Shown: positions 55,711-55,875 of the stretch, one piece after another | Layout of the letters: each line of letters starts with the position of its first letter | Position numbering within the stretch: position 1 is the first letter of the stretch | Assembly: GCF_017348835.2 (NCBI RefSeq) | Contig: NZ_CP072315.1 | Length of the DNA stretch: 64,000 bases | From: Escherichia coli | GTDB lineage: Bacteria > Pseudomonadota > Gammaproteobacteria > Enterobacterales > Enterobacteriaceae | Strand: one strand, 5' to 3' | The notes under the pieces: model-generated | Seen by the model: the letters and a program-made list of their open reading frames with translations, nothing else | The model's database searches: none | What the model was told of the DNA's origin: nothing | Made by a program: the position numbers and the translations under genes

Positions 55711-55875
55711 TAGGATCACTAAACAAAGAAAAGTGACCCTATGAATACCTCACATAGGGTCACTTATGTTTGAAAAGTGACCCTATGTAATGTCGTCATA
55801 GGGTCACTTTTTATAAAAGTGTCACTATGGACAAAGTTCCATAGGGTCATTTTTTTTGGAAAAGTGGCACTAGAT
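55711..55875. promoter_or_regulatory. array of AGTGACCCTATG / CATAGGGTCACT inverted repeats at about 43-bp spacing; candidate oriT or operator region
   Basis: Palindromes at 55732-55764, 55776-55808 and 55818-55850 (12-bp arms, 9-bp spacers) plus partial copies at 55711-55720 and 55863-55873, in the divergent gap between the regulator and relaxase operons. Confidence 0.45.

Follow-up and report, generated by a model that had tools for sequence, protein, structure and literature searches.

The gap between the divergent trhR and traH genes harbors an array of four evenly spaced dyad sites, which probably serve as binding sites for TraH, a member of the MobI family, and form the protein-recognition part of the IncHI2 oriT. 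In the window (the whole 64-kb stretch of DNA that was analyzed), the sequence together with a repeat finder revealed eight half-sites in alternating orientation (CATAGGGTCACTTTT / AAAAGTGACCCTATG) within the 166 bp of positions 55709-55874, each consisting of a 12-nt core prolonged to 15 nt by an A/T tract (AAAAGTGACCCTATG). From left to right, these half-sites are R1 (CATAGGATCACT, 55709-55720), L1 (AGTGACCCTATG, 55732-55743), R2 (55753-55764), L2 (55776-55787), R3 (55797-55808), L3 (AGTGTCACTATG, 55818-55829), R4 (CATAGGGTCATT, 55840-55851), and L4 (AGTGGCACTAGA, 55863-55874). Read as inverted repeats, AGTGACCCTATG-N9-CATAGGGTCACT occurs without mismatch at 55732-55764 and 55776-55808, whereas the third copy, AGTGTCACTATG-N10-CATAGGGTCATT at 55818-55851, contains three mismatches and a 10-bp instead of a 9-bp spacer; the left-arm starts lie 44 and 42 bp apart, the right-arm starts lie 44, 44, and 43 bp apart, and one outer half-site is found on each side (R1 and L4). 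The earlier note had described three 12-bp inverted repeats with 9-bp spacers at about 43-bp intervals, accompanied by degenerate copies on both sides. The two perfect repeats, the periodicity, and the copies on both sides stand, whereas the third repeat is imperfect with a longer spacer, and the arm-9 bp-arm unit has to be abandoned, since the relatives described below conserve a palindrome with an A/T-rich center instead.

This conserved unit, as derived from the relatives, is the palindrome CAT...ACTTTT-N1-7-AAAAGT...ATG with an A/T-rich center, and four such units with centers of N3-5 are present in the window (these units, like the box and the 13-bp palindromes described below, are given without strand). 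Unit 1 (55709..55743, CATAGGATCACTaaacaaagAAAAGTGACCCTATG) is a 35-bp palindrome with an A/T-rich center and with arms that are kept in IncHI1, and unit 2 (55753..55787, CATAGGGTCACTTatgtttgAAAAGTGACCCTATG) has a left arm identical in all four aligned sequences. Unit 3 (55797..55829, CATAGGGTCACTTTTtatAAAAGTGTCACTATG) was defined by the repeat finder and the alignment, and unit 4 (55840..55874, CATAGGGTCATTTTTtttggAAAAGTGGCACTAGA) has a right arm that shows the same degeneracy in all IncHI1/HI2-type relatives. When up to one mismatch was allowed, the 12-mer had six matches in the 64-kb window, all six of them inside the array, and no copy was detected outside the array on the 275.8-kb IncHI2 reference pSTM6-275, the sequence of which was put together from the loci L006-L011. 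A chance origin of the array is therefore excluded, while at three mismatches the 12-mer matched at background level (40 observed vs 36 expected). With regard to this reference, colinear identity with pSTM6-275 extended over only 36,486 of the 64,000 positions of the window, the exact match having been checked at 55001-56500 only, and the plasmid of the window diverges from pSTM6-275 somewhere outside that segment. The pSTM6-275 counterpart of window positions 1-~39000 carries sil/pco, tet(A), and a class 1 integron.

The gene order around the gap is that of the IncHI2 Tra1 region, namely trhY-trhR, the gap, and traH-orf245-traI-traG. Leftward from the gap run trhR (54581..55381, minus strand), encoding a regulator of 266 aa that is named trhR in pPSP-75c and had no Pfam match, trhY (54067..54579, minus strand), encoding its FlhC-like partner regulator of 170 aa with a CxxC...CxxC motif, and then trhF and trhH. 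Rightward run traH (56140..56625, plus strand), encoding a MobI-family mobilization factor of 161 aa (Pfam MobI PF19456, E = 4.8e-22; PGAP MobI(A/C)), and orf245 (56622..57359, plus strand), the second gene of the H operon, which had no Pfam match. These are followed by traI (57363..60515, plus strand), encoding a MOBH relaxase (NCBIfam NF041494 MobH, 255.6 bits vs a cut-off of 200), and by the gene for a TraD/TraG-type coupling protein (60515..62599, plus strand; TIGR03743 SXT_TraD, 676.8 bits). The gap is 100% identical to that of hundreds of IncHI2 plasmids from Escherichia, Salmonella, and Enterobacter, and about 1,400 plasmid records gave a match to the array region.

Previous studies have shown that the IncHI Tra1 region carries oriT and that in R27 the MobI-like gene traH directly adjoins it, the TraH protein being a MobI-like factor needed for transfer with the MOBH11 relaxase. 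It is also known from R27 that TrhR and TrhY jointly activate the F, H, AC, and Z operons and that HtdA counteracts this activation. One IncHI2 paper assigns an 'oriT' to Tra2 without detail, at odds with the R27 literature. In the present study, the position of the gap (trhR-traH intergenic, Tra1) was found to be that of the IncHI oriT, and a homologous arrangement was detected in the IncHI1 plasmid pO111_1 and in pPSP-75c. The traH-trhR intergenic region of R27 was reportedly cloned by Lawley in 2002 and mobilized by R27.

The half-sites are, as judged from an alignment of the window gap with three IncHI1-type plasmids, under strong selection. Against IncHI1 plasmids, with pO111_1 (IncHI1B) as a stand-in for R27, the gap showed about 75% identity over 76% of its length, and the invariant positions were concentrated in the 15-nt half-sites (109/120) in comparison with the spacers of the array (12/46; Fisher p = 5e-16). 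The left flank of the array (31/98 invariant) and most of the traH leader (50/187 invariant) were also poorly conserved.

Distant TraH/MobI homologues from plasmids, genomes, and metagenome contigs were then considered, and in every homologue with sufficient upstream sequence the plan of the array was kept at the equivalent place; a scan of genome contigs with TraH added only two loci. The plan was recognized in 12 loci (the window, L002, L012-L015, L017, L018, and L020-L023, with L019 duplicating L018), across which TraH is 32-100% identical to that of the window. It consists, in order, of three to six palindromes, a degenerate last unit running into a conserved box, one or two copies of AAAAGT-N-ACTTTT, and mobI. 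Each palindrome measures 33-35 bp and reads CAT-N-GTNAC-TTTT, a short center, and AAAA-GTNAC-N-ATG. The outer arm of the last unit is degenerate where it runs into the box, with the junction ACTAGATATATGTATAAC in IncHI1/HI2-like lineages, ACTTATGTATAAGGGTAAC in Klebsiella-type plasmids, GAGTATGTATTAATGA in L023, and ACAAGTATTAATCA in L015/L022.

Within this frame, the core of the half-site is specific to the lineage, being GGGTC in IncHI1, IncHI2, and Photorhabdus, GTGTT in L018/19 (TraH 54% identical), GAGTC in L021, GTTTA in L015/L022 (TraH about 36-42%), TAGTA in L012/13 and TTGTGA/TGGTA in L014/L017 (TraH about 39%), and CTCAA in L023 (TraH 32%). The L018-type array reads CATAGTGTTAC and the L015-type array CATGTTTAAC. 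Each lineage-specific change is complementary in both arms and common to all units of an array, suggesting sequence-specific recognition by a symmetric (dimeric) protein instead of mere hairpin potential. Moreover, the units are spaced at 42-47 bp or, in five loci, at 56-57 bp (11 of the 12 loci, as the L021 contig ends inside the array), and these alternative spacings differ by about 11 bp, that is, one turn of slightly underwound DNA, implying that the units lie on one face of the helix.

The array adjoins trhR/trhY in most lineages. In L015 (Enterobacter mori), five phased units, the terminal box, and mobI occur together, and no TrhR, TrhY, orf245, or TraI homologue was found within 3.5 kb of the array in the sequence of that locus. 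Arrays with mobI but without an adjacent relaxase gene or trhR/trhY were observed at L015 3048-3986 on E. mori p11A1213060_A_KPC, a KPC plasmid typed as non-mobilizable, at L022 457-1443 on a metagenome contig, and at L005 2501-3302 in an IS1-flanked remnant on an IncFII/IncR plasmid. Such relaxase-less modules may be mobilizable in trans by IncHI-like helpers. As for the identity of the binder, changes in the half-site do not simply follow TraH identity: IncHI1 and IncHI2 share one half-site although their TraH proteins are 76% identical, yet L012 and L014 have different half-sites with TraH proteins about 90% identical. Covariation as a means of naming the binder was tried and rejected, because TraH, TrhR, TrhY, orf245, and the N-terminus of TraI diverge in parallel between lineages, and such similar divergence of all neighbor proteins cannot single out one of them.

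Considering the linkage of the array to mobI, we infer that TraH would be its binder. The AF2 model of TraH (pLDDT 91) shows a long antiparallel helical hairpin, forming a coiled-coil stalk, with a small beta-sheet tip; no recognizable DNA-binding fold was found in it. The tip segment has a net charge of +12 (median +10 over 37 family members), and the helices are about neutral. In IncC plasmids, MobI self-associates and binds the C-terminal domain of TraI, and in the IncC/pAQU1 pair MobI and the cognate oriT set the specificity of transfer, and exchange of the TraI C-terminal domain retargets the relaxase to the oriT-mobI pair of another plasmid; for IncC MobI itself, it is only 'thought to bind oriT'. 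For IncHI2, the proposed substrate would be four dyads of 33-35 bp, each CATAGGGTCACTTTT-N3-5-AAAAGTGACCCTATG, placed about 44 bp apart, which would correspond to four turns of slightly underwound DNA. A TraH dimer or multimer would occupy these dyads cooperatively along one face of the helix and would wrap or underwind the DNA. The resulting complex could nucleate the relaxosome by engaging the C-terminal domain of the MOBH relaxase TraI and so recruiting it, in the manner shown for MobI and TraI of IncC, and could present to it the neighboring nic site.

The best candidate for nic, provisionally, would be the terminal box (TATATGTATAACTTT, core GTAT(A/T)AA) at 55875..55889, which abuts the last unit in all lineages (12 loci compared). 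This placement is a guess, since nic is unmapped in MOBH1 systems. If the minus strand were nicked, unit 4 and the box would match the layout of the GGI oriT, in which an inverted repeat of about 32 nt adjoins nic, and the relaxase operon would then be transferred last, as is usual. From its sequence, the box is a candidate nic region and/or a candidate -10 element of the traH operon promoter. It is legible as a -10 hexamer in the forms TATAAC, TATAAG, or TATTAA, with unit 4 over the -35 position; a scan of the plus strand for sigma-70-like promoters called none for traH. Because the last unit covers the -35 position that belongs to the box read as -10, autoregulation of the H operon is plausible, and the same TraH complex would possibly autoregulate traH-traI-traG.

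Several other elements were detected in the gap. A sigma-70-like promoter candidate for trhR lies at 55558..55585 on the minus strand (TTAGCA-16-TAAAAT with TG; a consensus match only), within a block shared unchanged by IncHI1 and IncHI2, with an implied 5' leader of about 170 nt. Just before traH, the 59 bp at 56081-56139 (GTGAAAAAAAA...CGGTATAGTAATTTCACATCAGGAGG) are invariant between IncHI1 and IncHI2 at 45/59 positions and contain a TATAGT -10-like hexamer about 20 nt 5' of the Shine-Dalgarno sequence, where the promoter scan made no call; a proximal traH promoter may lie within this segment. The traH leader also contains a GC-rich nested stem-loop at 55981-56032 (ACTCGCTGTT...GCCCCTCCCGAATGGGGG...AACAGCGAGT) with no T run after it, which is absent from IncHI1, and the Klebsiella-type plasmids have a different GC-rich stretch there. 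The IncP-type nic consensus YATCCTGY was also considered and rejected; its sole resemblance, GATCCTAT in unit 1, arises from an IncHI2-specific G-to-A change and is absent in IncHI1. The Rfam search gave no gathering-level match and only hairpin-like sub-threshold ones (at most 31 bits vs cut-offs of 50-440 bits), scores that exclude a known RNA family.

In addition to the array, a dispersed 13-bp palindrome, AAAAGT-N-ACTTTT, was found in 10 copies in the window in comparison with 0.19 expected (starts at 42491, 43392, 45485, 52397, 55016, 55457, 55942, 59365, 60803, and 62533) and in 46 copies on pSTM6-275, for which Markov models of order 1, 3, or 5 predict about 2. All of the copies lie in the IncHI backbone, about half of them in intergenic regions. 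Two copies flank the array, one between the array and traH (55942..55954, AAAAGTAACTTTA), with an equivalent copy in every lineage, and one about 75 bp upstream of the trhR start codon (55457..55469, AAAAGTAACTTTT), and the half of the palindrome, GTNAC-TTTT, recurs as the invariable part of each array half-site. The palindrome is unchanged in lineages with regulators only about 30% identical, its position is kept even inside trhR, and it is absent upstream of the F and Z operons. It looks like the operator of a global regulator or a host factor. A broader and more speculative proposal, which we regard as rather unlikely to hold as a whole, joins two ideas, namely that the array together with MobI/TraH serves MOBH11 relaxases as a portable, lineage-specific address label and that the 13-bp palindrome is the operator of a global IncHI regulator. 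A TraH filament would then read the 4-5-bp core within the constant CAT-N-GTNAC-TTTT frame on underwound DNA of about 11 bp per turn. If the former idea were true, the relaxase-less modules of array and mobI (L015, L022) would hijack IncHI helpers; if the latter were true, with the TrhRY/HtdA circuit or a host factor as the regulator, oriT would be wired into a plasmid-wide regulon.

The earlier note had placed the array between an FlhC-like regulator operon and the relaxase/coupling-protein operon, which the gene calls and profile matches bear out, and had cautiously offered a candidate oriT or operator with sites for an accessory protein or a regulator, a proposal that gains support from the location, the selection on the half-sites, and the conserved architecture with lineage-specific cores. 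Computation does not choose between oriT and operator. An array acting as an operator for the FlhDC-like TrhR/TrhY, or for their antagonist HtdA, would set the transcription of the H and/or R operon, in a role separate from DNA processing. The sites bound by FlhD4C2 are long imperfect inverted repeats about 10-11 bp apart, and this layout resembles the arm-9/10-arm reading of the array, which lies next to an FlhC/FlhD-like regulator, TrhY having an FlhC-like fold with a four-Cys zinc site. The position between two divergent operons, the activation of the R27 H operon by TrhR/TrhY, and the last unit over the -35 of a possible promoter also point in this direction. However, TrhR/TrhY also activate F, AC, and Z, upstream of which the best match has 4-5 mismatches in 15, and no half-site or comparable inverted repeat was found upstream of the AC, Z, F, and AN operons (best 4-7 mismatches in 15), indicating that the array is no general TrhRY box. 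Moreover, the 12-mer is unique on the plasmid, the L015 array keeps mobI but has neither trhR nor trhY within 3.5 kb, and an activator box does not usually need as many as four phased copies spanning 166 bp and stopping 266 bp short of the traH start codon, so that a purely transcriptional role is considered unlikely.

It is still less probable that the palindromes act as single-stranded or cruciform hairpins read directly by TraI, close to nic and with no accessory protein. Each unit is similar in size to the 32-nt single-stranded inverted repeat that the GGI TraI, the sole MOBH relaxase with a biochemical characterization, needs beside nic (PMC6736028), and the conserved box does abut the last unit. 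Both strands of 55700-55900 also fold better than shuffled sequences (z = -7.5 and -8.4), but these scores do not discriminate, because any palindrome gives a low folding energy. One repeat would be enough for such a mechanism, yet three to six strictly phased copies are kept in every lineage, and the units of one array share their sequence, which a purely structural need would not demand. In addition, the N-terminal segment of TraI (first 426 aa, containing the relaxase domain) is the most conserved of the proteins compared (50-87%), whereas the half-site core is the most variable element. Least probable by far is a partition centromere or a res-like recombination site with multiple subsites. 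The F sopC centromere is an array of 43-bp repeats, each with a short inverted repeat, and res sites consist of three inverted-repeat subsites, so that both layouts are comparable with the array, and an IncA/C recombination site once mimicked oriT in mobilization assays. Nevertheless, the par genes (ParA/ParB, ParM) are located in Tra2, about 170 kb away (15-22 kb on pSTM6-275 vs 192 kb for the array), the nearest recombinase is also distant, the half-sites alone are conserved instead of whole repeat units, and the array travels with mobI and not with par or recombinase genes. A set of TraH sites within oriT thus remains the preferred reading of the array.

Neither the location of the IncHI oriT, known from IncHI1, nor arrays of repeats for accessory proteins, a well-known kind of element, are new. 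In the literature searched, outside which the original 2002 R27 oriT paper lies, the motif strings of the array occur in no relevant paper, and four features appear to be undocumented there, namely the strict phasing at 44 bp (or +11), the conserved half-site frame around a core that changes with the lineage, the box behind the last unit, and the relaxase-less modules of array and mobI. The gain is incremental, as both an element of this kind and its place on the plasmid were to be expected, but the layout is unusually regular. Plasmids of the IncHI2 and IncHI1 groups are major vehicles for mcr, ESBL, carbapenemase, and metal-resistance genes, and in the MOBH1 group (IncHI, IncA/C, IncT, and SXT/R391) the mode of oriT recognition and the position of nic are still unsettled. 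With its near-identical phased dyads, natural specificity variants, and candidate nic box beside the last unit, the IncHI array is the cleanest candidate substrate, on which the binding of TraH/MobI, the recruitment of the relaxase, and the position of nic can be tested directly. The result would help to predict which plasmids or relaxase-less mobI modules are mobilizable by an IncHI helper.

Among known systems, the closest counterpart is the oriT region of the IncHI1 plasmid R27, a homologous locus with the same flanking genes, in which the eight half-sites are virtually identical (pO111_1 as stand-in), while the IncHI2 window differs from it in the spacers, the left flank, and the traH leader. 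The oriT of IncA/C and SXT/R391 elements (MOBH12) is an AT-rich, repeat-dense region 5' of mobI that needs MobI and a MOBH1 relaxase (Hegyi 2017, Ceccarelli 2008), and the IncHI2 array likewise lies 5' of a MobI-family gene (Pfam MobI) accompanied by a MOBH relaxase gene (NF041494). However, the IncC repeats (AGATTCCAGATAGAT and its inverse, and TGGATAGGAAT twice, in the pAR060302 oriT used for comparison) are unrelated in sequence, irregularly spaced, and located within 150-200 bp of mobI, whereas the IncHI array consists of strictly phased long palindromes ending 266 bp from traH. For the GGI, which encodes a MOBH2 TraI, an inverted repeat of about 32 nt adjoining nic is essential in the minimal oriT, a length close to that of one array unit and the terminal box together (PMC6736028). 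This oriT has a single inverted repeat without a MobI-type adaptor or a phased array, and its likeness to the IncHI array is one of size and layout.

Arrays of accessory sites near nic are also familiar from F (TraM at sbmA-C, and TraY), R388 (TrwA), RP4 (TraJ/TraK), and RA3 (MobC). Those arrays are phased sites occupied by a small oligomer, which bends or unwinds the DNA, brings in the relaxase, and in many cases also autoregulates the adjacent tra operon. They differ from the present case in their binders, which are ribbon-helix-helix proteins or similar, whereas a coiled-coil hairpin bearing a basic beta tip is predicted for TraH/MobI, and in being less regular than the IncHI array with its four to six near-identical palindromes of 33-35 bp at 44 bp. 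Finally, F sopC shares a similar period of about 43-44 bp with one dyad per repeat, but in sopC whole units are conserved and lie beside par genes, whereas in the IncHI array only the half-sites are conserved, beside mobI.
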